A stretch of 64,000 nt of DNA from a virus (lineage: Duplodnaviria; Caudoviricetes), in IMG/VR virus record IMGVR_UViG_3300021387_000161, positions 64,001-128,000 of that record; one strand, 5' to 3'. The notes beneath the pieces are model-generated. The model was not told where the DNA came from and made no database searches. It saw nothing but the letters and a program-made list of their open reading frames with translations. Shown one piece after another: positions 2,116-28,092 of the stretch; the first letter of the stretch is position 1; the number at the start of each line of letters is the position of its first letter. A program made the translations under genes and the position numbers.

Positions 2116-2487
2116 TTATTCTTCATCAATTAGTATTTTTATATTAAATAAGTTAGATGGAATTTTAGAATCTGCTTTTACTGAAATAGAAGCATTAACT
2201 AGATTACCATCAACTTCAACATCTATATCATCTCTAGTAATACTTACTTGAGGCATATAAGAATATATTGCATTAAAAATTTCATCTTTAAGTAATTCTA
2301 CTACTACTGGTTTAGCTGCTTGGCTCCATAAAATTTGTTTCATATTTAACCCATAATATGGATCACCAAACAACCCACCTCTATTTGACATTAATAAAGA
2401 TTTTAGATTTACCTTTATAGCATCATAATCTTCATTTAATCTTACTTTTGAACCATTAAAAATATTTGGAAAAGCTATTGAATACAT
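2116..2487 (-). CDS. Baseplate wedge subunit, gp25/GPW-like
   Basis: 123 aa; IKVNLKSLLMSNRGGLFGDPYYG...IYSYMPQVSI matches the gp25 pattern (L.T..GER...P.FG...EPR); position in baseplate module. Confidence 0.85.
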   Translation of the reverse strand: MYSIAFPNIFNGSKVRLNEDYDAIKVNLKSLLMSNRGGLFGDPYYGLNMKQILWSQAAKPVVVELLKDEIFNAIYSYMPQVSITRDDIDVEVDGNLVNASISVKADSKIPSNLFNIKILIDEE

Positions 2488-7000: not shown

Positions 7001-10000
7001 GTTCCATCTATACATTTCATTATCTTTATCTGTTGCAATAAATAAATCACCAGTGTCTAAACCTGTTGTTGGTCTATTATTATAGGTATTAACATAAGTC
7101 ATAATCTTTCTATCAGCTGTAGATTGTGCATTTGAAGCTGCAGTTAATGCTGATTGAATACCTGCGTCTCTAACTGGTTCCCAACTAGTGCCATCCCACC
7201 TTTTAAGCGTATTATCGTTACCAGTATCTATCCATAAATCACCCTTAGCCGTTGCAGTAGGAATATCAGAATCATAAAATGTAGTTATTTTTTGACCCAA
7301 GGTACTATTAGTACTAGTTACAAATTGTGCATAAGTACCATCTCTAAATGATATAAAAGCAGAATCATTTGTGTAATTATTATACTGAGTCCAACTACCA
7401 TTTACATAAGTAAGAATAGGATCATTAACACTCTTGAACCATAAATCACCCTTTCTGGCATTTGACGGAGTTTGTGCTCCAGTAAAAATAGTTGCTTTTC
7501 CATTAACAGTATTCATAACAGCTGATGGAGGAGTTGCGGTTATTTCTTGCCAAGCTGATCCATTCCATCTATAATATTTTTGCACGCCAGAAGTTGAATC
7601 ATACCAAATATCACCTTCATGATTAGAATACTCATCTGTACTCCAATCATTCTTTGGATTATCAGTTTGATAATATGTTTCTATTTTTGAATCTTGTAAA
7701 CCACTTATACTTGTATTAATGGTACTTATACTTGAATTAGTATTAGATACAAATGTATTATACTGGTTTGATATAAATGAAGTAAGTGAAGAATCATCTG
7801 TATAAATACCAGCTTGCCAGTAAGAACCATTAAATGTTAATGTTACTGTTTGATTGTCTTTCCAAGTATTCGCATTATTAACTTGAACTCCATTAGAATA
7901 AATACTATAATAACTAATATCTGCGTCGTTACTAGCACTCTTAATTCCAAGAGTTGTATTAGTTGTAGAAGCATGTTTATTAGTAAATTTACAAAGTATG
8001 GAAGTACCTTTTCTTATAATGCAACCATTTATAATAACATCTTTACCACCTGGTGTACCGGCAGTTGAACAATCAGCTGAATAAGTAATAGGTTGATCCA
8101 TTAATATCCATTTAGTACCGTCATACATAAATGTCATAATAGCTGTTTTAGTCCATACTAATTTATTAGTACTAGATACTATAGCATTATTAATATATAC
8201 ATCTTTAGCAGAAGAACCTCCTACTTGTAGTTTTAACGTGTCTGTTGTAGAATTCGTATTAAATTTAATTGCTATAGTTAATCCTTCATATAATGAAGAA
8301 TTTGATGTTATTTCACTACATGTAATAACTTTTGTAGCAGTACTATAGGATGTACTTGATGTACCCCATAATGTCTTACCATCTTCTCCATCTGTTACAG
8401 TATAATCAAAAGTAGAATTATCATCAAATGTGATTCTATAAGTTTTATCATTACCAGAAGTACTAAGTAATGTTACAGATTTTATTCCTTTACCATCTTC
8501 GCCTTCTGCTTTTACATTGGTACTAGATCCATTAATATACCAATAACCATCGTTTCCGATAGTAGGAGAATATCCTTGAGGACCTCTATCTCCATAAACA
8601 CCAATTATTCTTGCCTTTGTAGAATCACCTTGATCGGCTGTTTTAGAATAATGTATAACTTGATAATTCCAAAGATATTTATTAGTAGCATCAGGAACTA
8701 CTAAAGTATTTTTCTGCCAACCAGAAGACCCTGGATTAGTAGTAGTACGGGTTGTTTGATAGAATTCATCAATAGAAGTTATACTATTACCATCTACACC
8801 ATTAGTACCATTCGTCCCATCAACTCCAAAATGTCCTATTATAATAGGAACAGTAGAGCTTATTTCATTGTCATTTTCATCTAATACAGTTTCATAATTC
8901 CAAAGATATGGTTTATCTTTAGTTATTTGTTGTATTGTAGGTGTCCATCCAGGAGTTGATTTATCAACACCTGTAGAAAGATTAGTAGCTAAGTATGAAT
9001 TTACAACGTCATTTACACTAACACCATCTTTACCATCTTCAACAAATTTTACTGCGTTTCCCCAATCTGAAGTCGATATAGTATCTGTTAGTGCAGTATT
9101 TATAACAGAAGCTGATCTAGCCCAGCAAGGATTTCCATCTACTTGTGGTATTTCTTTAGTCCACCCATTTGAATTATCAGGTGATAATGCTCCGGTTGAG
9201 AATGTATATGTCATAGTACTAGTTGGTTTATCACTAGTAGTTGGAGTAGTAGCAGATCTTTTATATACTCTTACAACAGCTTGATTTAATCCATTTTCTA
9301 TTATTTTATTTGGACCAGACCACTCAGAAGAAGCAATAGTATCTTCAGCTTCTGAGCTTATAGCTGATGCGGAAATTACCCACCCAACATATTCTGGATG
9401 TGAGCTATTAATTGATGGTAATGTTTTTACCCAATTTCCTACTGAATCAGTATAAGAAGTACTACTACCAACTTTAAATTTACCATCTTCAAATCTATAA
9501 GTAACATCAGAAGAAGGAAGTGATGGAGCTGAAGCTGTTCTTTGATATAATGTAATAGAAGCTTGATTTAATCCATTAGTACCGGATACACCTGATTTTG
9601 TTTTAGTAATAGAAGTTTTATTATCGGAAAATAAAACTTTAGTCCAAAGCCAGGACCCCTCTGGAACTTCTGGAGCAGAAGTATATGGAAATTCACTTGG
9701 TTGAGTTTCAGTGGTTGTAACAGCGTATGTTATACTTGTAATGGTAACGCTAGTCCCATCTGTACCTAAATATCTACTCCATTTCCACCCAGAGTTATTA
9801 TATGCTGGGGCTGTTTGCTCTATACCATTATAAACTCCTATATAAGGTCTAGAAGAACTAGGAGATACATCATAATTAGATCCATCTGCATTAGCAGAAT
9901 ATCTTATATGTGTATAATATTGAGTAGCTGATTGACCATTTTCTACAAGCTTAACAGGAGTTGCCCAATTAGAAGAAGTTATATTTACTTCATCATCACT

Positions 10001-12167: not shown

Positions 12168-13934
12168 CTAATAAGTGTAATAACAGTTTATATTTATTGA
12201 ATAGTGAAATGAACTGAAATTTATAGTTACAGATTTACCACTATTCGCTATCAAAATCTCTTCTCCATAAGTATTACTTGAAGTATTTGTATCTATCATA
12301 TACCATGAAAATGCTGAATCTGAACAAGAATTTGTAATATCTACATTATTCTCATATACGTGTATATAAAATGTAACTGTAGAATTTGTTGAGTTAACAG
12401 AAGAAGTTAATTCTGTGTATATAGAATCAGGTAATAAACTACTGTCTATTATAGAATTAGCATTTATACTTCCTGTTATGGATAATGAACTACCGTCCCA
12501 TACAATGCCTTGATTTGTAGTTGGATTTGTATAAGAAAAAGTTCCATTACCCAGATTTATGTAGGAATTTCTATTAGAACTATAAATATTGTCAGTGGTT
12601 AATTGCTGTGCAGTAATTGTACCAGTTTCTATACGACCACCATAAATTAATGTTTCATCTCCAGGAGTTAATAAACTACTTTTAAATCTAGCTAATGCAT
12701 CAATAGCTAATTCTCCACTAACATCATATGTTAATACAGTACCAATAGCTGGTTCATCTGGTAATGAATTTGCTGTTGCCCTAATAGTTAATCTTCCATA
12801 ACTATCATCTGAAGTATCTTCAGGATCTTCTCCTGTATTTCTAACTGTTATATATAAGATGTTTCCAGCTTGAATTTCACCGTTATAACCATTTAATAAA
12901 TCTCTGGACCAAATTCCTGAATACCCTTGTTGACAATAAATTCCTACTTCTGCTTCTGTCCAAGCAACATCTTTATAAAATATTGATGTAGTTGTTATGC
13001 CTATCTCTGCATCTATTTCATCTTTTAAGTTTAATAATCTTTCATTTATATCTAAATCTATGGTTGTTTTTAATTCAGATAAATAATTTTTTAATGAAGT
13101 ATTAAACGAGACCCAATGATAATGTGATGGTATTAAAGAAGGAGAAGGATCTGTGGAAACATTTATGCCTAAATACTCTCCTTGAGTAGAACCTAAAGTA
13201 TCTTTATCTGTAGTTAATGAAACATGTAAAGTATCTAAGTATTCTTTTGAAATATATAATTTATAATCTAAATAAAGATCACCACTTATCTGTGAACTAT
13301 TTGTTATAGGGATAGTAGATAAATTTTCATCTTTATTTACTTTTTTTATTACATTTCCATCAGAATCAAAAACAGTTAATTCTTTATTTATAGTAGAAGT
13401 TATATCTACATTATTATCATCTATTATCGACCAATTTATAACTCTACAAGTCTTATCAATTTGTATACCTTTTATATCTTGATCTTCATCATAATATGGT
13501 CTACAAAATATATTACCGTCTTCAGATGATTCATAATACTTATTAGAGAATAAACTAGTAAATGTTAACCCATTGTCATTAGAATATTTTACATGAGTAT
13601 ATACATTTGTATTATTTATTTTTTCTATATTATCTCTAATGGAAGTTAATGAAGAATCTACATTTCCAACAGAAATATCTGAATCACTAGTTTGATCTCT
13701 ATATAATAATCCTAGTATGATAGGTTTACTTAATTCACCATTTTCGAATGAAATTAATACAACATCATTTACACTATATGCAATATCTATTCCTGGTATG
13801 GTACATACAATACCAGAAGCTAAATCATCTGTTTTTACACTATACGTAGCTGATTGTATTTTATCATATTTCGGTATTCTAACCTTATAATTATATTTAT
13901 CTATAACTTGTGCTATTATACCTTTTTGAATCAT
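12168..13934 (-). CDS. Central spike protein (gpV/gp5-type OB-fold N-terminus) with fibre-like C-terminal extension
   Basis: N-terminus KGIIAQV...KVRIP...YSVNDVVLISFENGELSKPIILG matches the spike OB-fold; directly downstream of the hub genes. Confidence 0.7.
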   Translation of the reverse strand: MIQKGIIAQVIDKYNYKVRIPKYDKIQSATYSVKTDDLASGIVCTIPGIDIAYSVNDVVLISFENGELSKPIILGLLYRDQTSDSDISVGNVDSSLTSIRDNIEKINNTNVYTHVKYSNDNGLTFTSLFSNKYYESSEDGNIFCRPYYDEDQDIKGIQIDKTCRVINWSIIDDNNVDITSTINKELTVFDSDGNVIKKVNKDENLSTIPITNSSQISGDLYLDYKLYISKEYLDTLHVSLTTDKDTLGSTQGEYLGINVSTDPSPSLIPSHYHWVSFNTSLKNYLSELKTTIDLDINERLLNLKDEIDAEIGITTTSIFYKDVAWTEAEVGIYCQQGYSGIWSRDLLNGYNGEIQAGNILYITVRNTGEDPEDTSDDSYGRLTIRATANSLPDEPAIGTVLTYDVSGELAIDALARFKSSLLTPGDETLIYGGRIETGTITAQQLTTDNIYSSNRNSYINLGNGTFSYTNPTTNQGIVWDGSSLSITGSINANSIIDSSLLPDSIYTELTSSVNSTNSTVTFYIHVYENNVDITNSCSDSAFSWYMIDTNTSSNTYGEEILIANSGKSVTINFSSFHYSININCYYTY

Positions 13935-13942
13935 TTATTTTC

Positions 13943-16693
13943 CTAAGTTACAACTCTTCCATCTATAGTTATATATTGATCATCACCAGCAACTCTTAAT
14001 AGACTTAACTTTGTTCTAAATCCATTTCCTGATAATGAATCTTCTTGTCCAGTTACTATGTATACACCGGAAGAATTTCTTTTCTGACCAAAGTAAAAAA
14101 CATTTACTTTTATATAATTTAGCAATAATGTATATGTAGTTAGACCTTTTACTTCTAACGTAGCTTTCACTGGAAATTCAGTAACATTAGTCCACCAATT
14201 TTTATCCGTTGTATTAGCACCTTTAGTACTAGCAATGGATTTTATATTAGAAGTTAATTGTTTTGAAGAAACTTTTCCAGCGTTGTCTATATCATAATCG
14301 TATGTTGTAAATCCACCAGCATATTCATACGCCAATGGCCAATTAAAATCTGTATCTACTGAAAAATTATATACTAAAGAATTTTCGTCTGGATAATTAA
14401 TATCTACTTCATACATAAATGGAAAAGCAGATGCTGATAAATTTGTTTTTATTTGTTTTATTCTAAAGTAAGATTCATTTCTTGAATTATCATCTATATT
14501 CATATAATATATAGAATCATTAAGTTTATTATCTTTACTAGTAATTGGAGTCATATATGAAACTAGTTTATTCATATAGTTTAATGGAGTAGTATTTGTT
14601 ACTGCATCGATATATACTTCCATATCATTAGAAGGAATTAGATTATTTGAATTTACAAATGACCTATTAGCCATTCCAGGAAAATAATCTAATAGTTCTC
14701 CAGTATCATATAACATTTTATTTATAATAGTACTTGGTTTAGCTGTTACTGAAGAATAATTTCTTCTATTTATAGAAGACATAATAGAAGAACTAGTTGC
14801 TTGTAATGTATAGTTAATTCTATTATTAAAAAAATCAAAATTACTTTTAGCATTTACTAATAAAGCATTTATATCTCTATAAGCAACGCCGGCTTCTGAG
14901 TCACCGTATTCTATCTGAATTTTATTATACCCATTTTGTGATATTAAATTATCTATATAATTTGGATTATCACCTGGATAAATTTGGTGAGTTAAATTTA
15001 TTGTATATTCATTTAAAGAACCATTTGTCTTAACAGTATTAATACTATTTAAATAATTTGGATAATTTTTATTTGTATAAGATCCAATAGTCACACCACC
15101 TAAAGTTATTTTTCCGTAAGGTGCTTCTACATAATTTACAGTACAAGGTAAATATGATCCAGATATGTTGCCGTTAACTTTTGTCTGTGGTTTTTTAAAG
15201 TTAGAAGCAGACTGAATATTAGGTAAAATTATATCTGGAATTACTGCTGGTTTTTCTATACTAGAAACATTTATACTTGATAAAAATTGCTTTGTTGCTT
15301 GCTGTCTTGCCCTTAAAGCTTTTTGTTCTTCTGTTTCTTCTTGATCTTCAAGATATTTATAATTATCTGACGAATATAACTGCTCTGGATGAACTTCTAG
15401 AATTAACTCATCAGCAGATGCATATTCACCATCAGCTGAACCGTCTAAACTATATTCTCCTCCAGGCCAATTAGGTCTCGCTATTCCTCCTACGGAACCA
15501 CCATAAAATACTATAAGATCACCGGCTGCTGTTCCTGATGGGACATTAATAGTTCTAGAGCCTACTTTATCACTGTAGTTTCCCTCAACTGTGGTTGCTT
15601 TTCCATTCTTAACAGAAGCGACTATGCCAACATGAGTAGTCGGCCCTCTTGAGGCTTTTTTAATCCACTTCCCACCTTTTCCTACTGCGTCTGCAGCTAC
15701 TAAATAGGCATTAGCGTTTTTAGGTATTATATTATTATTTCCAAATGCTTTATGACAACACCAAGAAACAAATATTGCACACCAAGCAACACCATTACTT
15801 CCAAACCATTCACCATATTTCTGTCTATTAGTTCCAGATTCTTTTGTTCCTATTTCTTTCTTTGCTACTTCTACAAATTTTTGAGCCGCAGTACCTTTAG
15901 TTCCACCACCGCTAGTAGGGGAAGCTGAGCCACCAGAGCCTAAATCTTTATACGTAGGAGCCCAGTCTGTAAAATGAATTGATCTTCTCTGATTAGCTGT
16001 TAGATATATAAAATTACCATTATAATCAAATCCAGCAGATTCAGTTTCTGAATAAGTTACTTTTACTGTACCTATATAAGCTCCGGTTGTATGCTTGTAC
16101 AGATCTATTATACCATGACTACTATAAAATTGTAGTTTATATATTATACCATTGTAACCGGCTACATCTTGACCTTGACCACCAGCACCTGCAGCTTTTC
16201 TAAAATGTTTATAAGATCTTTTACCAGAGCTTTTTGTAAACTCTGAATATGAAAATATATATATATTTTTCCCACTTGTACAATAAAATTTATTTACTGA
16301 TTTATCATAAGCTACTCCAGAAACACCTACTGGCAGATTAAATGTTCTTTGTTGCTTAAAATTTTGATTTAATACAACTATTTGTTTTCTTTGGCTTCCA
16401 TTATTATATCCAGTACAATAAATCATACCATCTTTATCACAATAGGTAGCACCATTGCAGTGCCCTAAACTATGATTAACTGTATCTGAGCCCTTTATAT
16501 ACCCATTCTTCTTTGTGTATTTTCTACAATGAGCAGTATGTCCAGAATTATATTGGTTATGAAATACAGCTACCACCGATCCTGGAAGCACGCACATGGA
16601 CTGCGGAGTACCTGGATTTCCCCCGCCTGGTAGTTTTATATTTTTTATTCCTTTATTAGAAGCTGTAAATGTTTTAATATATTTTCTACCCAA
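13943..16693 (-). CDS. Baseplate hub paralogue 3: beta-propeller + CHAP amidase + hub domain
   Basis: Propeller-like blades (PQSMCV, GHCNGATY, GVAYD, GQDVAG, ESAGFD); CHAP motifs WCAIFVSWC / HVGIV / EGN; C-terminal ~400 aa shared with the two upstream genes. Confidence 0.75.
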   Translation of the reverse strand: MGRKYIKTFTASNKGIKNIKLPGGGNPGTPQSMCVLPGSVVAVFHNQYNSGHTAHCRKYTKKNGYIKGSDTVNHSLGHCNGATYCDKDGMIYCTGYNNGSQRKQIVVLNQNFKQQRTFNLPVGVSGVAYDKSVNKFYCTSGKNIYIFSYSEFTKSSGKRSYKHFRKAAGAGGQGQDVAGYNGIIYKLQFYSSHGIIDLYKHTTGAYIGTVKVTYSETESAGFDYNGNFIYLTANQRRSIHFTDWAPTYKDLGSGGSASPTSGGGTKGTAAQKFVEVAKKEIGTKESGTNRQKYGEWFGSNGVAWCAIFVSWCCHKAFGNNNIIPKNANAYLVAADAVGKGGKWIKKASRGPTTHVGIVASVKNGKATTVEGNYSDKVGSRTINVPSGTAAGDLIVFYGGSVGGIARPNWPGGEYSLDGSADGEYASADELILEVHPEQLYSSDNYKYLEDQEETEEQKALRARQQATKQFLSSINVSSIEKPAVIPDIILPNIQSASNFKKPQTKVNGNISGSYLPCTVNYVEAPYGKITLGGVTIGSYTNKNYPNYLNSINTVKTNGSLNEYTINLTHQIYPGDNPNYIDNLISQNGYNKIQIEYGDSEAGVAYRDINALLVNAKSNFDFFNNRINYTLQATSSSIMSSINRRNYSSVTAKPSTIINKMLYDTGELLDYFPGMANRSFVNSNNLIPSNDMEVYIDAVTNTTPLNYMNKLVSYMTPITSKDNKLNDSIYYMNIDDNSRNESYFRIKQIKTNLSASAFPFMYEVDINYPDENSLVYNFSVDTDFNWPLAYEYAGGFTTYDYDIDNAGKVSSKQLTSNIKSIASTKGANTTDKNWWTNVTEFPVKATLEVKGLTTYTLLLNYIKVNVFYFGQKRNSSGVYIVTGQEDSLSGNGFRTKLSLLRVAGDDQYITIDGRVVT

Positions 16694-16694
16694 T

Positions 16695-19208
16695 TTAATT
16701 TCCTACTCTAAGTAAAGTTAGTGTAGTGGTATAACCAGAACCAGATATAGAATCAGTTTGATCAGTAACTACATATACACCACTAGCTATATCTTTTTGA
16801 CCATAAAATAAAGTATTAACTCTTATATATGTCATAAGCATGGTTGGGACGGTTAATCCCTTTAATGTTAATTTTGCAGATATAGGGAATTCAGTTAATG
16901 ATTTCCACCAATTAGAATTTATAATACTTTCTGTTAAAAACTTATTATCACTATGTAATGAGTTACTTTTTGATGATAAAACATTTCCGTTATTATCTAT
17001 TGAATAATTCCATCTTGGTATTTTATCATTATACTCATATACTAAAGGCCAATACATATTATCACATAATTGGAAATTAGTTACAAAATTATCTCCTGGA
17101 TAACCTACATCTACTTCATATAATACATTAGTAGAAGTCATACCAGAAATTTCAGAAACTTTAAATAACGCGCCATTAGGACTATTATCATAAGTTAAAA
17201 AGTAACTTGAAGTTTTAACATCATTAGTCATGCAACTAACAGCATGTCCTAAATAAGTTAGAGGCGTTGTATTAGTCATACCACCTATAGTAACTACTGC
17301 ATCATTAACTGGAATTAAATTATTAGAAGTTACATAAGATCTATCTGCCATTGCTGGAAAAGCTGTGGTTAATTGTTTACTTATCATACCTTTATTATAC
17401 AGTAAATCATTTATGACTGTTGAAGGTTTCCCAGTTACTTCTTTAAAATTAAAATAAGACTGATTAGAACTTACAACAGATGATATTGCTTGTATTGTGT
17501 AAGATATAGAAGAAGAGGATACACTATCATTCGATTTAACATCTGTTATAACAGCATCTTCTTCCTTAAAAATAAGTCCTGGACTTGAGCAATCACCATA
17601 TTTTATCTTCAATGGATTTAAATAACCAGTGTAACTTACTAAGGAATCTATAAAATTAGGATCTTCTCCTGGTCGTATTTGATAATTTAAATTTATAGTA
17701 TAATAAGTTATCTTACCATTTATTTTCTGAACTGACATAGAAGTTATATAATTAGGAAATTTATCTCCTGTATTACCATATCCTCCTATAGTCACACCAT
17801 TAAAATTTAATTCTATATAAGGAGCCTCTACTAAACTTGGATAAGAAGTTAATGAAGCAGTACCAGATTTTCCTGAGAATAAACTTGGCTTGAATACAAA
17901 ATTTGACGAAGCTACTACATTAGTACCAGTTACTTGTACGTCAGTAGGGATTATACTGGAACCAGAAGATAAATTAACTGACATATTAGTTAAAAATGAT
18001 TTAAGCTCTTCGTTATGTGCTTTTCTAGCTTTCTCTTCTTCCGATTCTACTTCTTCTTGTTCAAACCATTTATACTTTTCAGAAGAAAATAATTGATCTA
18101 TTGTAGTAAGAACTATAGCTCCACCAGAATCAACACCCATTATGGCTTCACCATCTTCTCCTACAACACCACCTCCATCTATTGGATATGATCCACCCGG
18201 GAACTTCGGTCTAGCTACTCTATATATTGCTGATATATCTCTAGTTCCTGATACAACTCTATCTGTAGATGGTCCAGCATTTCCTTCAATAGTATATAAT
18301 GTTTTACCTTTAACTTTTTCTATTATACCTACATGGTCAGCTAATCCATTATGATTAGGATCTGTAGTAAATATATCTCCAGGTTTACATTTTGCAGCAT
18401 TCTGCTCATTCTTTGCAAAACTTCCTTTGAGTACCCAACTTCCACCACATTTAGTTACTGTATATTCTTGAAGATAATGTGCCATAGCAGAAGTTTTTGG
18501 AATTGCTTTATTATTCCCGAATGTTTTATTTGCACACCAGGCAACGAACATAGCACACCATGATTCTCCATCCATACCAAACCATTTTCCATATTTTACA
18601 TGGTTGTTTCCTGTCTCCTTTGTACCAACTTCTTTTTTAGCAGTAGCAACAAATGCTTGAGCGCCTGTACCCATTTTAGTAGTTGCTGAAGTTGTTTTTG
18701 CATTTGCTGAATTACCACTAGAAGGATTTGAAGCACCCCCAACATAAACCCAGGCATGTCCTCTAGACCCATTTTTTCTAACCATAATATCACCGGGTTT
18801 TATACTAGAGCTATCTGCATGAAATGCCATCTTTTTTAATTTACCATTTAAGGTTAAAGCATACATGTAAGTATCGTATGATGCACATCTAACAGCAGAA
18901 ACACCTGCATATTTGCAGATTGCAGTTACTAATCCTGTACAATCTACTGGGACTGATTTTGCCTTGGCACCAGGTCTTCTTAATTTATTTATCTCACCTT
19001 CTTTTACTTTTTTTACCCAGGTAACATTTTTATTTCTATAAAAATATGCTTGACGACCTTCATAAGCTGCAAATGCACCTTTTAAGATAGCATTCTTTAC
19101 TTTCTCAGAAGTTGGTCTAAATACAAAAGCTCTATTAAGTTGTTTCCCATATTGTCTATGTCTGCAACCTTTTCCGGTCATATCAATGACCATTATCTTC
19201 TTGCCCAT
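16695..19208 (-). CDS. Baseplate hub paralogue 2: NlpC/P60 + CHAP + hub domain
   Basis: DCTGLV...PGDIMV...GHAWVYVG (NlpC/P60 Cys/His); WCAMFVAWC...PGDI...HVGII...IEGN (CHAP); shared C-terminal domain. Confidence 0.78.
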   Translation of the reverse strand: MGKKIMVIDMTGKGCRHRQYGKQLNRAFVFRPTSEKVKNAILKGAFAAYEGRQAYFYRNKNVTWVKKVKEGEINKLRRPGAKAKSVPVDCTGLVTAICKYAGVSAVRCASYDTYMYALTLNGKLKKMAFHADSSSIKPGDIMVRKNGSRGHAWVYVGGASNPSSGNSANAKTTSATTKMGTGAQAFVATAKKEVGTKETGNNHVKYGKWFGMDGESWCAMFVAWCANKTFGNNKAIPKTSAMAHYLQEYTVTKCGGSWVLKGSFAKNEQNAAKCKPGDIFTTDPNHNGLADHVGIIEKVKGKTLYTIEGNAGPSTDRVVSGTRDISAIYRVARPKFPGGSYPIDGGGVVGEDGEAIMGVDSGGAIVLTTIDQLFSSEKYKWFEQEEVESEEEKARKAHNEELKSFLTNMSVNLSSGSSIIPTDVQVTGTNVVASSNFVFKPSLFSGKSGTASLTSYPSLVEAPYIELNFNGVTIGGYGNTGDKFPNYITSMSVQKINGKITYYTINLNYQIRPGEDPNFIDSLVSYTGYLNPLKIKYGDCSSPGLIFKEEDAVITDVKSNDSVSSSSISYTIQAISSVVSSNQSYFNFKEVTGKPSTVINDLLYNKGMISKQLTTAFPAMADRSYVTSNNLIPVNDAVVTIGGMTNTTPLTYLGHAVSCMTNDVKTSSYFLTYDNSPNGALFKVSEISGMTSTNVLYEVDVGYPGDNFVTNFQLCDNMYWPLVYEYNDKIPRWNYSIDNNGNVLSSKSNSLHSDNKFLTESIINSNWWKSLTEFPISAKLTLKGLTVPTMLMTYIRVNTLFYGQKDIASGVYVVTDQTDSISGSGYTTTLTLLRVGN

Positions 19209-21682
19209 TAATTAGCACCAACCCTTGTTAAAGCCAACGTAGTTCTAAATCCTTCTCCTGATAATGTATCTTTCTGACCAGTTATTACATACACACCACT
19301 TGTTATATGCTTTTGACCATAAAAAACTACATTTACTAAAATATAATCCATAAGCATAACTGGTTTCATTAATCCTTTTAATGTTAATGAAGCATTTATA
19401 GGAAAATGAGTCATTTGAGTCCACCAATTCTTTTGTATTTCATTTAATACTGACGATGAACTAATTAGATTAGGAGAATAATTTTTTATTTTATTACCAC
19501 TATTATCTATGGAATAAATGTATTCATCTGATACTGAAGCATTCTCATACAATAATGACCATGCTAATTGATTATCAACATTGAATCCCATAACATAATT
19601 ATTATCTGGATAACCTACAGTTACTTCAAATATATTATTCGTATTATATTCATTTAAAACTGTATTATTAAGTTCTCTTATATTAAAATATGATCCACCC
19701 ATAGAATTATCAAAATCATTTTCATAAGATATATAATAAGTAGATTTTCTAATTACATCAGTAGTAGCATTAACTGAGTTACTCATTAAACTTACTAAAT
19801 AATTTAAATATTCTACTGAATTTATATTTGTTTTTGATTCTATATCTAATACAGCATCGTTAGTTGGAATTAAATTCTTCGAGTATACTAAATCTCTATT
19901 TCTCATACCAGGAAAAGCATCCAATAATAATTTAGATGTTTCAGGTATATCATATAAAATAGAATTTATAACATTAGAAGGTTTATTTACTGATGCTGTA
20001 AAATTAACTTTATGAGATGTAACTAATTCATTAGCAGATGTAGCATATATAGTGTATGATATTTTATTACTAACGTAGTCCCTATTCATAGAAACATTTG
20101 TTATAATTGCTTTCTCATCTCCATATACTACATTTGAATTATAATCTCCATACTTTATCCCTATCTTATCATATCTTACACTAGATAATAATTTATCTAT
20201 AAGATTAGGATCTTCACCAGGACGTATTTGATGAACTAAATTAAAAGTATATTTATTTATCTCACCATTTATTTTATCTACTTCTAAACTTGATATATGA
20301 TTTGGAAATTCGTCTACAGAATTTTTATAAGTACCGATAGTTCTTCCATTAAAATCTATCTCAACAAATGGAGCTTCTACCATAGCAGCAGATATAGGAA
20401 ATACTGAATTAGTATTTTTTATTAATCTACCTCTTGCTGAAGAAGTAGAAGGCATACTAATATATGAATCAAATACTGCGACAGTAGAATGAGTATCATC
20501 TAATTTTATATTTTTTAAAAAGTCTTTAGTAGATTGCTGTTTAGCTTTTAATGCTTTTTGTTCTTCAGATTCTTGAGCTTCTGCTTCTTCTAACCATTTA
20601 TAATTATTTGAGGAGTAAAGTTGAGAACTTCTTTCCTGCATATTAACGACAGCTTGAACATACTCATCTTCGTATATTCCTTCACCGTCGCCAGCACCTG
20701 ACATTCTTTCGTCCCATGTCTTTGCATATTTAACTCTCGCAGACATGTTTGGAAGACCAGCTCTCTCAAACTTCTTTTCAAACTGCTCAGTCATTTCCTT
20801 TAAACTGAGCGATTCATTTTTTAGAACTTTATTAGCTGATTTTTCAGAATTCTTTAATTCATAAACTAAGTATGCTACTTGGCCATCAACACTATCCCAT
20901 CTCTTAGCTTTTGAGTGTTCTTTGGCATATTTTTGCATCTTAGTTTTTCTTCCGAAAGTCCATTGACATAAACCTTCAGAACCATTTCCATCAAAGCTAC
21001 CATTAGTCTTTACTCTGATACCAGATTCTTGCTGCATATTTCCAAGTACTGCACAGCAAGCTTTATGTGAATACCCATAACCTTGTAATTCAAAATAAAC
21101 TTCAGCGCCTGTACCATACTTCTTTATATACCATGATTTATCATGAGCCGCTGATCCACCAGCCCCAACACCTTTTCCTGGAAATGTGATATACTGTAGA
21201 CCATAACTACTACTATTAAATCCATGTGCCCAAGTGGAACCAAAATAACCTATTTTATTATCGCAAGGATCTATAATATAAAAATCAGAATCTTTTACAT
21301 TATTCTCATTCTTACCGTCTCTAACCCCAATAACACATACATAATGATTAGCGTATGAGCCTTTAGTTGCTACTACAACTGGTTTTCCCTTTTTTAACTC
21401 CGCTATAATAGCTTTATATCTACTTTTTACAGATCCACCACTATGAGATGTAACTTTCATAGTACCCCATTGACACATTGCAAAAGTGCCACCGTTGTAT
21501 TTATTAGCTACAGCTTGATGTGATGCTGGGTTTCCTGATACTCTACATTTTTTTTCTAATATAGTATACCCATACGCAACCGCATATACCCCACATTGCT
21601 GAGACCCTTGTTTGCCTAATACTTTTTTAATTAATTGCTCATTATAACTTAATATCATATAAGCCTTCTTAATAATGTTCAA
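19208..21682 (-). CDS. Baseplate hub paralogue 1: C39-like peptidase + phage tail lysozyme + hub domain
   Basis: QGSQQCG...KGKPVVV...HYVCVIG...IIDP (C39-like); AVLGNMQQESG...GLCQWT (tail lysozyme); shared C-terminal domain. True start may be a few codons downstream (MILSY). Confidence 0.78.
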   Translation of the reverse strand: MNIIKKAYMILSYNEQLIKKVLGKQGSQQCGVYAVAYGYTILEKKCRVSGNPASHQAVANKYNGGTFAMCQWGTMKVTSHSGGSVKSRYKAIIAELKKGKPVVVATKGSYANHYVCVIGVRDGKNENNVKDSDFYIIDPCDNKIGYFGSTWAHGFNSSSYGLQYITFPGKGVGAGGSAAHDKSWYIKKYGTGAEVYFELQGYGYSHKACCAVLGNMQQESGIRVKTNGSFDGNGSEGLCQWTFGRKTKMQKYAKEHSKAKRWDSVDGQVAYLVYELKNSEKSANKVLKNESLSLKEMTEQFEKKFERAGLPNMSARVKYAKTWDERMSGAGDGEGIYEDEYVQAVVNMQERSSQLYSSNNYKWLEEAEAQESEEQKALKAKQQSTKDFLKNIKLDDTHSTVAVFDSYISMPSTSSARGRLIKNTNSVFPISAAMVEAPFVEIDFNGRTIGTYKNSVDEFPNHISSLEVDKINGEINKYTFNLVHQIRPGEDPNLIDKLLSSVRYDKIGIKYGDYNSNVVYGDEKAIITNVSMNRDYVSNKISYTIYATSANELVTSHKVNFTASVNKPSNVINSILYDIPETSKLLLDAFPGMRNRDLVYSKNLIPTNDAVLDIESKTNINSVEYLNYLVSLMSNSVNATTDVIRKSTYYISYENDFDNSMGGSYFNIRELNNTVLNEYNTNNIFEVTVGYPDNNYVMGFNVDNQLAWSLLYENASVSDEYIYSIDNSGNKIKNYSPNLISSSSVLNEIQKNWWTQMTHFPINASLTLKGLMKPVMLMDYILVNVVFYGQKHITSGVYVITGQKDTLSGEGFRTTLALTRVGAN

Positions 21683-22073
21683 ACTGTAAATTCTTACCCC
21701 TAGAAGGTAAGTATAAAATATCTCCAGGTTTTGGGTTTACAAATGGATCTATAATTCTATTATAATCACAAATAATCCAATACATAGTTGGATTATTATA
21801 TTTTTCTAAAGCTATTGAATCGTATGTATCTCCTTCTTTAACAGTATAAGCTTCATAATCATCTGAATCTTTAAGCCAAGAAGAAGTTGACATATTATAT
21901 TTTCCCTCAAGTCTATATGCTGGTAAACCAGTTTGAGGATCTAATTGTTGTATTCCATTACTATCTACTATTGGAACTTTTTTCTCACTTAACTTATTAT
22001 AATAATATGAAAAACCATTATAACGTGAAAAATAAGAACTTGTCTTTATTGTCTTAGTTGATAATACTTCCAT
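21669..22073 (-). CDS. LysM-domain baseplate protein (gp53/gpX-like)
   Basis: YTVKEGDTYDSIALEKYNNPTMYWIICDYNRIIDPF...PGDILYLP. Confidence 0.85.
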   Translation of the reverse strand: MEVLSTKTIKTSSYFSRYNGFSYYYNKLSEKKVPIVDSNGIQQLDPQTGLPAYRLEGKYNMSTSSWLKDSDDYEAYTVKEGDTYDSIALEKYNNPTMYWIICDYNRIIDPFVNPKPGDILYLPSRGKNLQFEHY

Positions 22074-22622
22074 TTACCATGTCCCCAATCTTCTTCCACC
22101 TTTTCTAGCAGGAAGTATACTTGCTGTTTGTGGTTCTACTTCTGATATAGAGAAATTAAGATTTACTAGAGCATATTTTGACTCACCATCATAATTTAAT
22201 ATTGGTAAATTAAATGTTTTACCAATACCACCAGTTACAACTCCTTTAATATAAATCTCATCTCTTATTTTTAAAGATACTATAGGAGGATTTACTACTT
22301 TATTGGCTTTTTCATAATCAGGCAATACTAATGCTTCTAAATTATTAATTAATTCCTCTACCATATCAGTAGATCCTGGATTAAATTCTTTGCATAAATC
22401 CCTATGTAAAGTAAATGATACTTGTACTGTTCTAGGACCTGAATTTTGGTAAGAATAAATAGGAGCACTTCTGCTTAAAGGGAAATTTGATGCAAAAGAA
22501 GCACTCATATTATCTGTAATAGAATCTGGATCTACTGGTATAACAAAACTCTTACCAGTATGATGAAAAATTATATAATTTTCAGTTGGTATTCTTTGTT
22601 TCTTTGATACCCTTATTGCCAT
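22074..22622 (-). CDS. Tail-tube initiator / tube-like baseplate protein
   Basis: PDSITDN...RSAPIYSYQNSGPRTVQVSFTL...PPIV motif of tube-initiator proteins; lies between tape measure and LysM gene. Confidence 0.7.
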   Translation of the reverse strand: MAIRVSKKQRIPTENYIIFHHTGKSFVIPVDPDSITDNMSASFASNFPLSRSAPIYSYQNSGPRTVQVSFTLHRDLCKEFNPGSTDMVEELINNLEALVLPDYEKANKVVNPPIVSLKIRDEIYIKGVVTGGIGKTFNLPILNYDGESKYALVNLNFSISEVEPQTASILPARKGGRRLGTW

Positions 22623-22631
22623 CTAATATCC

Positions 22632-24719
22632 TTATTCTTCCTCTTCTTCATATGTACCATCATATGCTATATTTTCATTTAATACGTCTCCGTCTAAGAA
22701 ATCACTTCCTACTCTGAGACTCTTTTCTATATCGGTTGTTACATAACCTAAATTATCTCTTATATATTGTTTAGGGTAAGTATTTGCAAAATCAAATATT
22801 AATTGTCTGTATCTATCGCTCCAGTAATTAAATGTATATCTACTATCTAATACAGAAACAACTGATAAATCATCTGATAATCTATCCATATCATTATTGA
22901 TAGTATCTAGATTACAAATTACATGCCATAATAGATACTGTATCAATGTTTCTGAGAATGGCCTTATTTTCTTAGTTTGAGTTTCCATAAGCATTAAATG
23001 ATCTGTAAATAGATGATCTAATCTTGATCTTGAAAATACTTCAAAATTATTATCGTTATAATATTTTTCTTTTGCTATGTCTGTATAATCACCCTCTAAT
23101 ATTATAATATTATGATCATATGATGCTGGAACTTGAATTAACATATATAAATTATCCTCTATATAATCATACATACAACAGTTATCTTCTGTTATATCAT
23201 AATTATAAGTCAAAGGTACTTCTGTTCTTTCTTTTTGATAGTATACTTTATCTGGATGTATATATGTATCTTCAGTGGGTACAAATTCACTATCAATAAA
23301 TTCATACCATCTATTATCATCTTCTTTATCTACGTAATAATAAACTGTATCTTCATTATATACAGTAGAAGATGTGCATTGTATATAAGTATGATTTATT
23401 TCATCGTAAGTATAATATTTTTCTTTGTTACTATTAAAAATATTTCTACCAAAGAAAGTTTCATCTTTTGGACATTGTTTATATGATTTTGTAATATCCT
23501 CAAATGTACCTATACTAGGATCTAAGCTTTCAAATAGTTCATATTTAGGTTTAGGTAATATTAATTTATTATCACCTGTCTCATCTTGAACATAGACATC
23601 AGTATTAGCTTTTAACTCATACTCACTACCATCATCTATTACAAATTTATAACCCGGTATATAATTTTTATTACCTATTAAATATGGATTATTATAATCA
23701 GCTACTATCCATGGACCACTTTTATTTCCATGTTCATCTACTGTTACATCTTCACTTTGTTTTCTAAAGGTAGGATAAGAACCAGCTGATGCTTCTCTAT
23801 AGTATTTAGGATTATAATTTGATGGTATTTCAGTATAAGCAAAACCAGAATAATTTATAACTTTATTCTTTGGAACATTATCAAACCTTATTTTTATAGG
23901 ATGTCTAAATCTTAAGTTAGGTTCATTATGGATAACATCATTATGATTTAACTTTATATATTTATTAGTAACATCTAACCCATTACCGAACCTATTATTA
24001 CTTAATGTTAATAATGTACCATGTCTAATAAATGCAGGAGCAATGGTTGTCATACCAACATTATTCATACAAATAGTATAATCAGTATTAAATCTTATAG
24101 GTACCTTATATACCTTTGTTGAATAATCTGCTGATGTCTTTCTTATCTCATCACTGGTTATATGTATATTTCTTAATAGTTGATTACTAAAACAATTATA
24201 TAGAGGCATTAGATTTAAATCATACATATCTCTAAGACCTCTTAAATACATACCTAAATGTTCATGCGTTTTATAATCATAACCCTCACTACTTGATAAG
24301 AAATTATAACATAGTTTATTATTTCTTTCACCAAAATGATATTCACCCAATATACTAAATGAAGCTACGTTTGGTTCATACCAACCTAGTTCTCTTGGGT
24401 GTCTGTTATCACCATTTCTTCCTACTACTCTTTTATACCCATGTTTAGATTTTTCATAATATATCTGACCAGCTTTAATTTTTTCATCATCTGATTTTCT
24501 TAAAGTAGACTCTGGATATTCATTAAAATCTAAATTAGCATTTTTTACCACTATATATCCACTATTAGTACATTTAATAATATTACACTTATAAATGTAT
24601 ATTCTATCTTTTAATATATAGTCATGCTCTCTTACTGTTCTAAATCTTGGTAAAAAAGTACTATTTAATAAGTTTTTAATAAAATAAGATTCATTTGAAA
24701 CTTTGTTAAATTCTATCAT
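22632..24719 (-). CDS. Hypothetical tail/baseplate-associated protein
   Basis: 695 aa in the tail module; carries TxD...YY modules also seen in other tail proteins. Confidence 0.45.
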   Translation of the reverse strand: MIEFNKVSNESYFIKNLLNSTFLPRFRTVREHDYILKDRIYIYKCNIIKCTNSGYIVVKNANLDFNEYPESTLRKSDDEKIKAGQIYYEKSKHGYKRVVGRNGDNRHPRELGWYEPNVASFSILGEYHFGERNNKLCYNFLSSSEGYDYKTHEHLGMYLRGLRDMYDLNLMPLYNCFSNQLLRNIHITSDEIRKTSADYSTKVYKVPIRFNTDYTICMNNVGMTTIAPAFIRHGTLLTLSNNRFGNGLDVTNKYIKLNHNDVIHNEPNLRFRHPIKIRFDNVPKNKVINYSGFAYTEIPSNYNPKYYREASAGSYPTFRKQSEDVTVDEHGNKSGPWIVADYNNPYLIGNKNYIPGYKFVIDDGSEYELKANTDVYVQDETGDNKLILPKPKYELFESLDPSIGTFEDITKSYKQCPKDETFFGRNIFNSNKEKYYTYDEINHTYIQCTSSTVYNEDTVYYYVDKEDDNRWYEFIDSEFVPTEDTYIHPDKVYYQKERTEVPLTYNYDITEDNCCMYDYIEDNLYMLIQVPASYDHNIIILEGDYTDIAKEKYYNDNNFEVFSRSRLDHLFTDHLMLMETQTKKIRPFSETLIQYLLWHVICNLDTINNDMDRLSDDLSVVSVLDSRYTFNYWSDRYRQLIFDFANTYPKQYIRDNLGYVTTDIEKSLRVGSDFLDGDVLNENIAYDGTYEEEEE

Positions 24720-24727
24720 TTAAAACC

Positions 24728-27139
24728 TTATAATGCAACTGCGTTTGCAGTATTTGTATTAGTTTTATTGTCTTTTGTACTATTGCTAGATTCATCTCCA
24801 GCATACTGGAATAAATTATCTTTAAGAACTTTATTTTCTCCAGTAAATGTAGATTCCATAGCATTCTCATCTGCAAATATTGAAGCAAATGATCTTAATG
24901 TATCATCAGTCATACCAGTTAGGAATACAGCAAATGCTTCCTTACCAGCTTCATTTTTCATTTTTAACTTATCTAATTCTTTTAATTTCTCTAATATAGG
25001 ATCAGCTTCTGCTTCATCGCTATCCCAACTTTTTCCAGAATAAGAAGCATATTCTTTCTGATACTCATTACTAGATTTTATAGAAGACATAGTATTTACT
25101 GTCTTAAAGTTAGAACCATTTGAGGTTATAGTAGCACTTATACTTGTAGAATTTCCTCCATAAGAAGGAGCACCATTTATAAGTGTTTCTAACCCTCTTC
25201 CAGGACCAGTCATTAATGATGGAATAGCCCTTAATGTTGATAATAGTCCTTTAAATTCTTGTCTAATTATATTTAATTCGGCAAGAGCACCTGCCCCTTT
25301 AACAATTAAAGATGCAGGACCCATCTTAGCTGCAGGAGAAGCTGATATTTGATTAGCTACATCTACTATAACATTTGATATTTTCCATGATAAATAACTA
25401 GAAGCATCTTTTGCAATTGAACTACCAAATGTAAATCTAGCATTATCCATAACATTTTGTATTTGTTCTGCTACTACTGTTCTTGCCGTTGATTGAACTT
25501 GCTGCAACTCATTAGATACCATACTTAAAGCTGAACCTTGATTTACATAAGTTAATCCACCCATCTTACTAGATAAATTTTTAAATGCTTGTAAATCAGC
25601 CATACTCATACCAAATAATTGAGTATATGAAGATGTTAATACATTATTATCTTTAGTGTTTGCTTCTATTTGAGTTAAATATTTTACTACAGCAGTTAAT
25701 AGTTCATTTATATCTGAAGTAGATAAACCTTGTTGCAATATATCTGCATAGTCCATGCCTATAGTGTCCATACTTAATAACACTAATCTTTGCAAATCTG
25801 AGTCAGAAGCAAGTGCTGATACATTACCAGAACCAAGTGCGTTTAATGCGTTAGCAATTTTACTAACTGTTCCTGAATCAACACCTGATTCATACATAGC
25901 TCCCATCCAAGTTTGCATAACAGAACTATATTCGGTAACATCTCTATCACCAGAAATTACAACAGCATCTGTTATAGCGTTTTGTATTCCACTAAACATG
26001 TCTTGCATATAAGTAGAATCTTTAAATACTCTATTTAATGTATTCCTTAATGCAATCTCTAAACCAAATTGGGTAGCTGTAACGTCTGTTTGTCTTAATT
26101 TTACTAATCTTAATAAACTTCCTTCCATAGAAGAAAAACTAGAAAGTGTTTTATCCTTTATAGTTTCTAATAATGCTCTTTGTTCTACATTATAGGTTAT
26201 TCCTCTGGAAGTTAAATTTGCTATCTGACTTATATAATCAGTTTGTTTTACAAATCTACTAAGTCCTAATGAATCAACTGTTCCTTCCATAGTGGATTCA
26301 AAAGTTTGACCAGTACCCTCTAACGCAGCATTTATTCTTCCAACATTATTAGCTAATACGTTGGCAGCTTCTTCAACCCAACCATCTACAGATTTTCTTA
26401 CTGCCATTGCAACATCTAAAATTTTAGATGTAGTTTTTGCTATGATTCCTATAGGACCAGAAACTTTTCCTAAGTTTTTATCTATTTCCTCACCTAATAT
26501 AGAAGCATGTTTATCTGATGCAACAGATAAAGCTGCTTGCTGTGCCCATTCAGGGGCTTTACTTGCTTTTATAGCCTCTTCTATAGAATCTTGCTTATCT
26601 TTTCTTCTCTGTTGTATTTGAGAAATAGGTTGATTAGCTTCTGCCCTTTCTAGATCTTGTTGTTCTTCTGCTAACTGATCATATAATTCTCCAAGTTTTG
26701 CCAAATCCTTATTGGATTTTATTTCTTTAGATTCTATATGGGCAATCTCAGCTTTAGTAGCTATAACATTTGCTAATGCGTCATCTATATCATATTGTAA
26801 AGAATTAGTAGCGTCAATAGCTTCTTGTGCTTTAACTATATCCTCTTTACCAAGTCTTTCCAAGGATTTTGCAACCTCAGACTTTCTTGACATAAGCCCA
26901 TTTACAATACGTTCTTGCTGTTCTAGTTGGCTCTTTACTTCATAGTAACCATCATCGCCTTTAGAGAGTTGCGCAAATTGGTTATTAAGTTTTTCACGGA
27001 TTCTAGTCTGCTCAACTAAATTATTAGATATCATAGACAATCTTTTGGCTTCTTTTGCCGCAAATTGTTCCATATATCGATCTTCAGCTTGTCTTTTCTC
27101 TATACTTTTTAATATTTTATTTCCAGGGTTATTAGCCAT
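24728..27139 (-). CDS. Tape measure protein
   Basis: 803 aa, helical/coiled-coil, A/S/Q/L-rich; follows chaperone genes and precedes baseplate genes. Confidence 0.7.
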   Translation of the reverse strand: MANNPGNKILKSIEKRQAEDRYMEQFAAKEAKRLSMISNNLVEQTRIREKLNNQFAQLSKGDDGYYEVKSQLEQQERIVNGLMSRKSEVAKSLERLGKEDIVKAQEAIDATNSLQYDIDDALANVIATKAEIAHIESKEIKSNKDLAKLGELYDQLAEEQQDLERAEANQPISQIQQRRKDKQDSIEEAIKASKAPEWAQQAALSVASDKHASILGEEIDKNLGKVSGPIGIIAKTTSKILDVAMAVRKSVDGWVEEAANVLANNVGRINAALEGTGQTFESTMEGTVDSLGLSRFVKQTDYISQIANLTSRGITYNVEQRALLETIKDKTLSSFSSMEGSLLRLVKLRQTDVTATQFGLEIALRNTLNRVFKDSTYMQDMFSGIQNAITDAVVISGDRDVTEYSSVMQTWMGAMYESGVDSGTVSKIANALNALGSGNVSALASDSDLQRLVLLSMDTIGMDYADILQQGLSTSDINELLTAVVKYLTQIEANTKDNNVLTSSYTQLFGMSMADLQAFKNLSSKMGGLTYVNQGSALSMVSNELQQVQSTARTVVAEQIQNVMDNARFTFGSSIAKDASSYLSWKISNVIVDVANQISASPAAKMGPASLIVKGAGALAELNIIRQEFKGLLSTLRAIPSLMTGPGRGLETLINGAPSYGGNSTSISATITSNGSNFKTVNTMSSIKSSNEYQKEYASYSGKSWDSDEAEADPILEKLKELDKLKMKNEAGKEAFAVFLTGMTDDTLRSFASIFADENAMESTFTGENKVLKDNLFQYAGDESSNSTKDNKTNTNTANAVAL

Positions 27140-27146
27140 TTATTGA

Positions 27147-27410
27147 CTATCCTCTTGCAGCTTTAGCTTTTTCAAACGCTGCATTTTGTTCTTTTAATTC
27201 TTCTGTTATAAACTTTAATATCATCTTCCTTTCTAAAGGAGTTATCTCATCTAAATCTAAAAAAGATGTATGTATTTTATTTGAAATAATATATTTCTCT
27301 TTAGCTATATGCTCCATAAGAATTGTCTTATCTCTATTATAAGGTAGGAGTAGGTCTAAAAAATGATTGGTTGACACGAAAGGGAGCAATAAATGAAGAA
27401 CCACATACAC
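27147..27410 (-). CDS. Small tail/hub assembly chaperone (gp51/gpT-like); true start uncertain (ATG at 27317 or frameshift product)
   Basis: SFLDLDEITPLERKMILKFITEELKEQN resembles the small helical gene typically found between gp26-like chaperone and tape measure. Confidence 0.55.
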   Translation of the reverse strand: MYVVLHLLLPFVSTNHFLDLLLPYNRDKTILMEHIAKEKYIISNKIHTSFLDLDEITPLERKMILKFITEELKEQNAAFEKAKAARG

Positions 27411-28092
27411 TACAATATGCTGTTGAATCTAACTCAATACCCATAGAATTATTTACCTGATCTATTCTGTATAAAATAGCATTAGAATCTGCCATAGGTA
27501 AATCTCTAATCCATTGTTCCAATGAAATTGGATCTACATCTTCATCATCTATTTGTTCTATTGAAGCCATAATAGTATAAAGTACTGTAGCATTCTCATT
27601 ATTATTCTTACGTCTCTTATTATGGTCTCTTACTCTGGCATTAATTCTATCCAACATTCTAGGAGTTTGCATAGTTAATTTTATATGATTACCACTTACT
27701 GGTAAGTTAAATTCTAATAAATCTACTAATGAATCATCATACTCACTAACTGGTAATTCATCTATATTTAATGTTACAGTATTTTCAAACCCACAATAAG
27801 GACATCTACATTGTAATTCATATTCAGGACCAAATGTTACCACTCTTAACTTGTATAATAAATATTGAAAATCTCCTAAGCATAAATCATAAGAACTTAT
27901 ACCTAAATCTGATACTAAACAATCATCTATAATCTGTGCCATTAATTTTTGATTTTCTTCTGTTGCAGATAATCTTAACATCTCATGTTTAGTTTTCATA
28001 CTGCTAAGTTCTACTTCAGGATTTACTTCTTCTTCATATACTAATCCATGTGAAGGTAAATATAGATTTTCAACTATTCTTGAATTTTCCAT
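27337..28092 (-). CDS. T4 gp26-like baseplate hub / tail assembly chaperone
   Basis: LPSHGLVY...DLCLGDFQYLLYKLRVVTFGPEY...CPYC...CSVC; upstream of tape measure; SD AAGGAG. Confidence 0.75.
   Translation of the reverse strand: MENSRIVENLYLPSHGLVYEEEVNPEVELSSMKTKHEMLRLSATEENQKLMAQIIDDCLVSDLGISSYDLCLGDFQYLLYKLRVVTFGPEYELQCRCPYCGFENTVTLNIDELPVSEYDDSLVDLLEFNLPVSGNHIKLTMQTPRMLDRINARVRDHNKRRKNNNENATVLYTIMASIEQIDDEDVDPISLEQWIRDLPMADSNAILYRIDQVNNSMGIELDSTAYCSVCGSSFIAPFRVNQSFFRPTPTL

Follow-up and report, generated by a model that had tools for sequence, protein, structure and literature searches.

The hub of a contractile tail is a trimer that sets the three-fold symmetry of the baseplate core. In the gp27/gp44/VgrG-N hub superfamily, the fold has four domains, of which I and III are tube-like beta-barrels, and the top face of the trimer is pseudo-sixfold and binds the tube initiator. 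To our knowledge, wherever a contractile tail, tailocin, or extracellular injection system has been solved, its hub is a homotrimer encoded by one gene. Here, we describe three adjacent genes, A, B, and C, in a stretch of 64,000 nucleotides (hereafter the window) from a virus of the class Caudoviricetes (positions 64,001 to 128,000 of IMG/VR record IMGVR_UViG_3300021387_000161). As judged by a modeled fold, A, B, and C are paralogues, separated long ago, of the protein that forms the baseplate hub, the trimer that caps the tail tube and holds the spike. We propose, at a probability of roughly 0.55, that the three proteins co-assemble 1:1:1 as one ordered heterotrimeric hub.

Hub homotrimers with lytic domains have been solved for gp110 of Staphylococcus phage 812, a Kayvirus (PDB 9euf_E; PMC13433997), and for gp15 of cyanophage A-1(L) (PDB 8kea_A; PMC10966104). 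Like A, B, and C, gp110 is a gp27-type hub of a myophage with a Gram-positive host, carries a CHAP-type "cleaver" fusion, and lies between the tube initiator and the central spike, from where the tube tip takes it across the wall; the structural likeness amounts to a VIA Z score of 13.7. In phage 812, the hub remains at the tube tip, and the CHAP domain has been proposed to cut peptidoglycan during tube insertion (PMC13433997). However, gp110 is the product of one gene, and its homotrimer bears the same single enzyme on each subunit, whereas the window has three diverged genes with a LYSSxNY linker. HMMER detects no sequence similarity between gp110 and A, B, or C.

A-1(L) gp15 is alike in being a hub that bears several hydrolases (lysozyme, endoglucanase, and peptidase). 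Two of its hydrolase domains have been shown to be active, and the hub enzymes lysed host cells in vitro (PMC10966104). All of its enzymes, however, are built into one 900-aa chain, either as insertions or as a C-terminal domain, and this chain forms a homotrimer. Among the relatives described below, this single-chain layout is found in a single-copy sister clade (889-1260 aa) but is absent from the triplicated clade. T4 gp27 and Mu gp44/P2 gpD (PDB 1k28_D and 1wru) share the four-domain hub fold and a gene located before that of an OB-fold spike, but they are ~380-aa homotrimers without enzymes, and the T4 lysozyme resides on the spike protein gp5. A, B, and C share the hydrolase-hub fusion with single-gene lytic hubs but not the rule of one hub gene per genome.

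Type VI secretion systems (T6SS) provide another parallel, because hub-spike paralogues with differing effectors are thought to combine in mixed VgrG trimers (Vibrio cholerae VgrG1/2/3; PMC8668125). In VgrG, however, the hub is fused to the spike, the effectors are C-terminal, the genes are scattered and variable in number, and mixing is facultative. A, B, and C instead go with a separate, probable spike of 588 aa and have N-terminal modules, tandem genes fixed in number and order, and signatures of their own. The hub domain reaches the end of the protein in all three, except for a 12-aa tail on C, and there is no fused OB domain. A literature search found no description of a heterotrimeric phage hub or of a conserved three-gene hub; the "heterotrimers" that have been reported are wedges or accessory fibres. 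Lytic hubs are already known; by this search, the conserved three-gene hub is the new element.

Hub domain and gene slot

A, B, and C can be aligned from the LYSSxNY motif, via an acidic helical linker, into a C-terminal domain of ~380 aa, for a total of ~470 aa. Conservation reaches at least 90% within each paralogue at 53 columns, 50 of which have the identical residue in A, B, and C. A preliminary description of the locus, made by a model from the sequence alone, had listed three adjacent genes with a common linker and C-terminal domain; their coordinates and lengths are confirmed, and the three open reading frames (ORFs) are on the minus strand (Table 1). In all three paralogues of every genome, LYSSxNY and the acidic helix mark the junction between enzyme module and hub, and hub-only relatives do not have the motif; the linker could be a processing or docking site.

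Searches of Pfam, PHROGs, and PDB sequences returned no match for the shared domain (best PDB sequence E value, 1.2), nor do A, B, and C match Pfam hub families such as Phage_GPD, and so it took a fold search to identify it. The B copy was modeled with AlphaFold2 from an alignment of 37 diverse relatives, giving a pLDDT of 69.6, with the domain mostly at 70 to 90 and the linker poorly defined. At a probability of 1.0, a Foldseek search of the PDB with this model retrieved hub/VgrG proteins only (E values of 2e-11 to 1e-6 over ~400 columns), including type VI VgrG, T4 gp27, Mu gp44, and the P1, diffocin, pyocin R2, PVC/AFP, 80alpha, and phiCD508 hubs. VIA-align, which is independent of Foldseek, gave the A-1(L) hub gp15 as the best structural match (Z of 15.2), followed by the P1, diffocin, phage 812 (phi812), pyocin R2, and Mu gp44 hubs (Z of 12-14; model residues 93-472). 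The first sub-domain by itself resembles tail tube proteins (VIA Z of ~8), as expected for hub domain I. By its predicted fold and gene position, the shared domain is a gp27/gp44-type baseplate hub, in keeping with the preliminary description, which had called these genes hub paralogues. As a sequence family, it is absent from curated libraries and not yet described.

In this part of the window, every gene lies on the minus strand. The stop codon of A overlaps the start codon of B (TAATG), the gap between B and C is one nucleotide, and that between C and the following gene is eight. A scan of the A-B-C block for internal terminators, promoters, and invertible repeats found none above chance, and therefore A, B, and C should be made together, co-expressed from one operon with no switch.

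The gene series in the window is gp26-like subunit, tape-measure-like protein, Tyr-rich protein, tube-initiator-like protein, LysM protein, A, B, C, and the 588-aa OB-domain protein. A complete single-hub genome, L019, has this series with a single hub of 420 aa, after which come a small OB protein and a gp25-like gene. The series also occurs in Bacillus phage HSE3, in which one 549-aa "baseplate protein" precedes a gene annotated as "baseplate hub and tail lysozyme." Because gene order is the same in both, A, B, and C occupy one hub slot. The preliminary description had placed the three genes between LysM/tube-initiator genes and the spike, and the flanking genes are as it noted (a 134-aa LysM protein, a 182-aa protein, and the 588-aa protein), the last two being weak matches to their families.

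Copy number, ancestry, and enzyme modules

Relatives were sought among 5.8 billion proteins, in IMG/VR, JGI metagenomes, GTDB genomes, and 1.84 billion cluster representatives, and the contigs around matches were fetched. Most of the resulting loci are metagenome contigs, a few of them cut at the triple. The hub family comprises 603 cluster representatives at an E value of <= 1e-3 and is common in gut and rumen metagenomes. A tblastn search of 50,697 phage records with the hub domain found only one unannotated 6.9-kb faecal fragment and no cultured member.

The virus record from which the window is taken is complete, is 145,522 bp long, and has direct terminal repeats; the hub domain occurs in it exactly three times. 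Its clade agrees, in that each of the ~18 loci with enough contig has a tandem of exactly three hub genes, always ordered alike (L003-L007, L011, L012, L015-L018, L029, L033, L034, L038, L039, and L051). These loci span 40% identity and include the deepest-branching lineage, L051. Where a locus shows only two hub genes, its contig ends at the triple. Outside the clade, there is one hub gene in L019 (138.9 kb), in L022-L025, which read TAG as glutamine, and in the cultured phage HSE3. One hub gene is also found in L049 and on the P0186 contig, and these proteins (889-1260 aa) carry CHAP or lysozyme modules. Locus L048 has one 973-aa hub with C39 and lysozyme domains on a 4.2-kb contig that ends 430 nt downstream, and so further copies are possible. 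No genome with two or four hub copies was seen among the loci examined. In sum, hub genes always number three within the clade and one outside it, even as N-terminal modules are exchanged, and the free variation in copy number that would have spoken against the heterotrimer suggested in the preliminary description was not seen.

Two side observations concern these loci. The hub gene of L023 (L023:9965-11215) has seven in-frame TAGs, two of them at invariant Gln residues (in YGQK and TGQxD), and ORF lengths in L022-L025 almost double when TAG is read as Gln. Also, L038 and L039 are contigs of 72 kb and 50 kb from one metagenome-assembled genome (MAG) labeled "uncultured Firmicutes," each with its own triple-hub block; this MAG bin probably consists of or contains two phage genomes.

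A maximum-likelihood tree of hub domains revealed that A, B, and C are each monophyletic (SH-aLRT support of 98-100), with congruent internal branching and a support of 100 for the clade of triples. The three genes of L051 fall at the base of this clade, either beside the B and C clades or without resolution. Hubs fused to enzymes form the sister clade, with a single copy in each of the three members for which contigs were inspected; at the root are single genes that encode only a hub. The monophyly of A, B, and C indicates one ancient triplication. Judging from these sequences, the likely history is that a plain hub became fused to wall hydrolases and was then triplicated once, with the three copies retained ever since.

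Within one genome, the paralogues are 37-40% identical, while orthologues across genomes have median identities of 44-49%. Orthologues are closer than same-genome paralogues, which argues that there has been no gene conversion. Moreover, each paralogue has a signature. The loop position x in YGQK-x is His in 12/12 A copies, Asp in 12/12 B copies, and Arg in 11/12 C copies. The C-terminal tail of 12 aa, ending in DGRVxT, is present in 12/12 C copies and in 19/20 C-class metagenome proteins, but in 0/102 A- or B-class proteins, and single-copy hubs are without it. Other C-terminal additions were observed as well. The A hub of L004 (L004:6316-10008; 1231 aa) has a 400-aa extension past the hub domain with a Big_2 Ig-like domain, and single-copy hubs of the sister clade have extensions of 40-450 aa.

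By comparison, the enzyme modules change position between paralogues, and many different N-terminal combinations occur among the metagenome matches. Nonetheless, counting recognizable domains, each of the 12 triples examined has exactly one Phage_lysozyme2; its carrier is A in eight triples, B in one, and C in three. In most triples, the cysteine peptidases are on chains other than that of the glycosidase. The occurrence of one lysozyme per triple despite shuffling fits a single assembly that pools complementary activities.

Assembly of the hub

Several lines of evidence point to a hub made of one A, one B, and one C: copies number either one or three, the three genes are co-expressed, none has been lost, homogenized, or reordered, each has its own signature, and each triple has one recognizable glycosidase. 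In such a hub, the hub domains would be specialized for their places in the ring, with a defined subunit order, and the N-terminal tethers would be exchangeable payload positions. A single tail tip could then present one glycosidase (the lysozyme on A) together with C39-like, NlpC/P60, and two CHAP-type domains and a propeller-like binding domain. Upon sheath contraction, the tube tip and the attached hub would be driven into the thick Gram-positive wall, where the tethered enzymes, if active as predicted, may locally cut glycan strands and peptide stems. This model of infection follows phage 812, in which the hub is on the tube tip, and A-1(L), in which the hub enzymes are lytic in vitro. A more detailed proposal is that the A-B-C hub is obligate and ordered and stems from one triplication, that the C tail and the His/Asp/Arg triad act as an asymmetric contact or gate, and that the modules can be swapped singly; we regard its chances as even.

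Some considerations weigh against the ordered heterotrimer. We infer co-assembly of A, B, and C in one trimer from comparative genomics, and a fixed copy number with distinct signatures would also be expected if there were three kinds of homotrimer, one per paralogue, each essential in a role of its own. For several N-terminal modules there is no family match, and so the count of lysozymes could be read only from domains that are recognizable. Genomes with two or four copies could exist unsampled. Furthermore, the need for mixed VgrG trimers in T6SS has been traced to effector loading and not to the trimer itself (PMC8668125), which makes that analogy loose. A complex prediction for the A and B hub domains (782 residues, each with its own alignment) scored 0.12 against a mark of 0.32, which counts neither for nor against binding.

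What else might three hub genes do? They could form three separate homotrimers, or mix at random, so that each virion has one kind of tip and the population hedges its bets with different enzyme sets. The solved phage hubs found as PDB matches are all homotrimeric (PMC13433997; PMC10966104), the 50 shared columns mean that each paralogue could dock to the same partners, and alternative tips need differing N-terminal modules, which are indeed present. Yet homotrimers made from one coupled operon without a switch need mutually exclusive interfaces, and, with one lysozyme per triple, two thirds of the particles would be without a glycosidase. Bet-hedging also leads one to expect gains and losses of copies, but the ~18 loci all keep three in one order, and random mixing leaves unexplained why hub domains stay paralogue-specific while modules swap. 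We therefore think separate homotrimers or random mixing unlikely. The interchangeable tips that the preliminary description offered next to a heterotrimer are, by the same strict three-copy retention and paralogue-specific signatures, the less likely of its two options.

Alternatively, one gene, with A as the candidate, might encode the true hub, and the other two might supply extra trimeric rings or accessory baseplate parts to the same virion, either stacked on the channel or located next to it, for a total of nine tethered enzyme sets. A keeps the His seen in L023, the one single-copy hub checked, whereas B and C have longer branches and derived features (Asp or Arg at the loop and the tail on C). 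Also, hub domain I is similar to tube proteins (Z of ~8), and such rings stack in tails. However, single-hub relatives share the core set of neighbours (gp26-like protein, two large proteins, tube initiator, LysM protein, spike, and gp25-like protein), and so the triple clade has neither lost a component that B or C could replace nor gained visible partners for an extra layer. Moreover, the conserved columns are common to all three paralogues, as for equivalent positions in a ring and not for three environments. An arrangement with one true hub appears doubtful, and we rank it below separate homotrimers. Far less probable than either is that the triple has no structural meaning and consists of redundant tail lysins that share an anchoring domain by chance. 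Tail-associated lysins are often modular and duplicated, and the many N-terminal combinations among metagenome matches are in line with this, but the common domain is the hub itself and not an anchor, the genome has no other hub gene, and the copies have remained separate, intact, and ordered since before the deepest split of the clade.

If the ordered A-B-C heterotrimer is correct, it breaks the three-fold symmetry of the central baseplate and is the first phage or contractile-injection hub of three different chains. The retention of three distinct copies since the origin of the clade would then represent natural symmetry breaking, by paralogue fixation, at the axis of the machine. These lineages also illustrate two routes in evolution to a multi-enzyme drill for thick Gram-positive walls, namely, the one long chain of the sister clade and, in this clade, three chains with shuffling. 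Finally, engineered phages or tailocins might use such a design as a scaffold in which three payload positions can be exchanged independently.

Features of the window

The window belongs to an uncultured, contractile-tailed phage with a gut Firmicutes host. The genome is of the myovirus type, and its capsid module is T4-like (terminase, portal, prohead protease, major head protein, and sheath). By capsid protein, the closest cultured relatives are phages of Bacillus, Listeria, and Streptococcus (27-30% identity), and one related protein bears a Romboutsia MAG label. Features are listed in Table 1.

Table 1. Hub paralogues, their domains, and neighbouring baseplate genes in the window
Feature	Position	Strand	Details
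Hub paralogue A	19208..21682	-	824 aa from TTG; likelier 816 aa from ATG at 21658
A, C39-like peptidase	~21266-21511	-	Peptidase_C39_2 (PF13529), 23.6 bits vs cut-off 24, borderline
A, tail lysozyme (predicted)	~20711-21100	-	Phage_lysozyme2 (PF18013), 98.4 bits vs gathering cut-off 28.2
A, LYSSxNY linker	~20498-20623	-	
A, hub domain	~19211-20380	-	
Hub paralogue B	16695..19208	-	837 aa
B, NlpC/P60 (predicted)	~18732-18950	-	25.6 bits; ELLD matches too
B, CHAP (predicted)	~18279-18569	-	PF05257, 47.7 bits vs gathering cut-off 26
B, linker	~17970-18095	-	
B, hub domain	~16698-17840	-	Copy used for fold model
Hub paralogue C	13943..16693	-	916 aa
C, propeller-like domain	~15914-16693	-	Residues 1-260, ESM Atlas beta-propeller clusters
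C, CHAP-like domain	~15542-15889	-	Residues 269-384, CHAP-type endolysin PHROGs, E 1e-13
C, linker	~15251-15376	-	
C, hub domain	~13982-15127	-	
C, own 12-aa C-terminal tail	~13946-13981	-	
T4 gp26-like baseplate hub subunit	27337..28092	-	251 aa; PF12322, 69.7 bits; phrog_150, E 5e-23
Probable tape measure	24728..27139	-	803 aa; slot of HSE3 tape measure; conserved in relatives
Tyr-rich conserved protein	22632..24719	-	695 aa; conserved in L004, L006, L019
Tube-initiator-like protein	22074..22622	-	182 aa; PF19266 CIS_tube, weak, E 0.0013; 34% identical to HSE3 gp077
LysM baseplate protein	21669..22073	-	134 aa; PF01476, 24.1 bits; baseplate wedge PHROGs
Probable central spike	12168..13934	-	588 aa; N-terminal OB domain + beta-rich domains; PF04717 (gp5/gpV OB), weak, E 0.0028
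gp25-like sheath initiator	2116..2487	-	123 aa; 39% identical to 123-aa L019 protein matching PF04965 GPW_gp25

The ATG at 21658 is the start of A in public gene calls and is preceded by the ribosome-binding site AAGAAGG. As for the N-terminal modules named in the preliminary description, the lysozyme on A and the NlpC/P60 and CHAP domains on B hold. The C39-like peptidase on A is borderline, although matches to PF13529 are clear at the same N-terminal position in relatives (28.6 bits in the B protein of L015; also in L048 and L051). A Pfam search of the N-terminal modules of C returned no match, and PHROG families alone detected the CHAP-type region. The propeller on C stands as a lead only: residues 1-260 resemble ESM Atlas beta-propeller clusters that include phage receptor-binding propellers (score of 0.94; TM of 0.8).

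The gp26-like gene opens the block of central-baseplate genes and has the same place in all relatives. The 803-aa protein next to it is rich in Ala, Ser, and Leu and contains no Cys. Neither this protein nor the 695-aa Tyr-rich protein matches a family in Pfam or PHROG. Bacillus phage HSE3 has one tape measure gene (1286 aa) at this place, whereas the whole group described here has two genes (803 and 695 aa in the window).

In every relative, the gene that follows the hub conserves the N-terminal ~80 aa of the putative spike. A 300-residue AlphaFold2 model and the ESM Atlas indicate that the OB part of the window's spike weakly resembles the P1, PVC, A-1(L), and R2-pyocin spikes (all E > 1e-3). 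Because these structural matches are weak, the assignment of the 588-aa protein as the spike is based mainly on position and on a sub-threshold Pfam match.

In the window, the gp25-like gene lies downstream of two fibre genes (2694 and 518 aa), while in L019 it directly follows the spike. From this displacement, the giant fibre genes look like an insertion into the core baseplate block. In L003, the gene after C is a single ORF of 3642 aa (L003:14614-22139), the first 300 residues of which are 65% identical to the 588-aa spike, and so the spike appears to be fused in that locus to the giant fibre protein, which in the window is a separate protein of 2694 aa (4073-12157).

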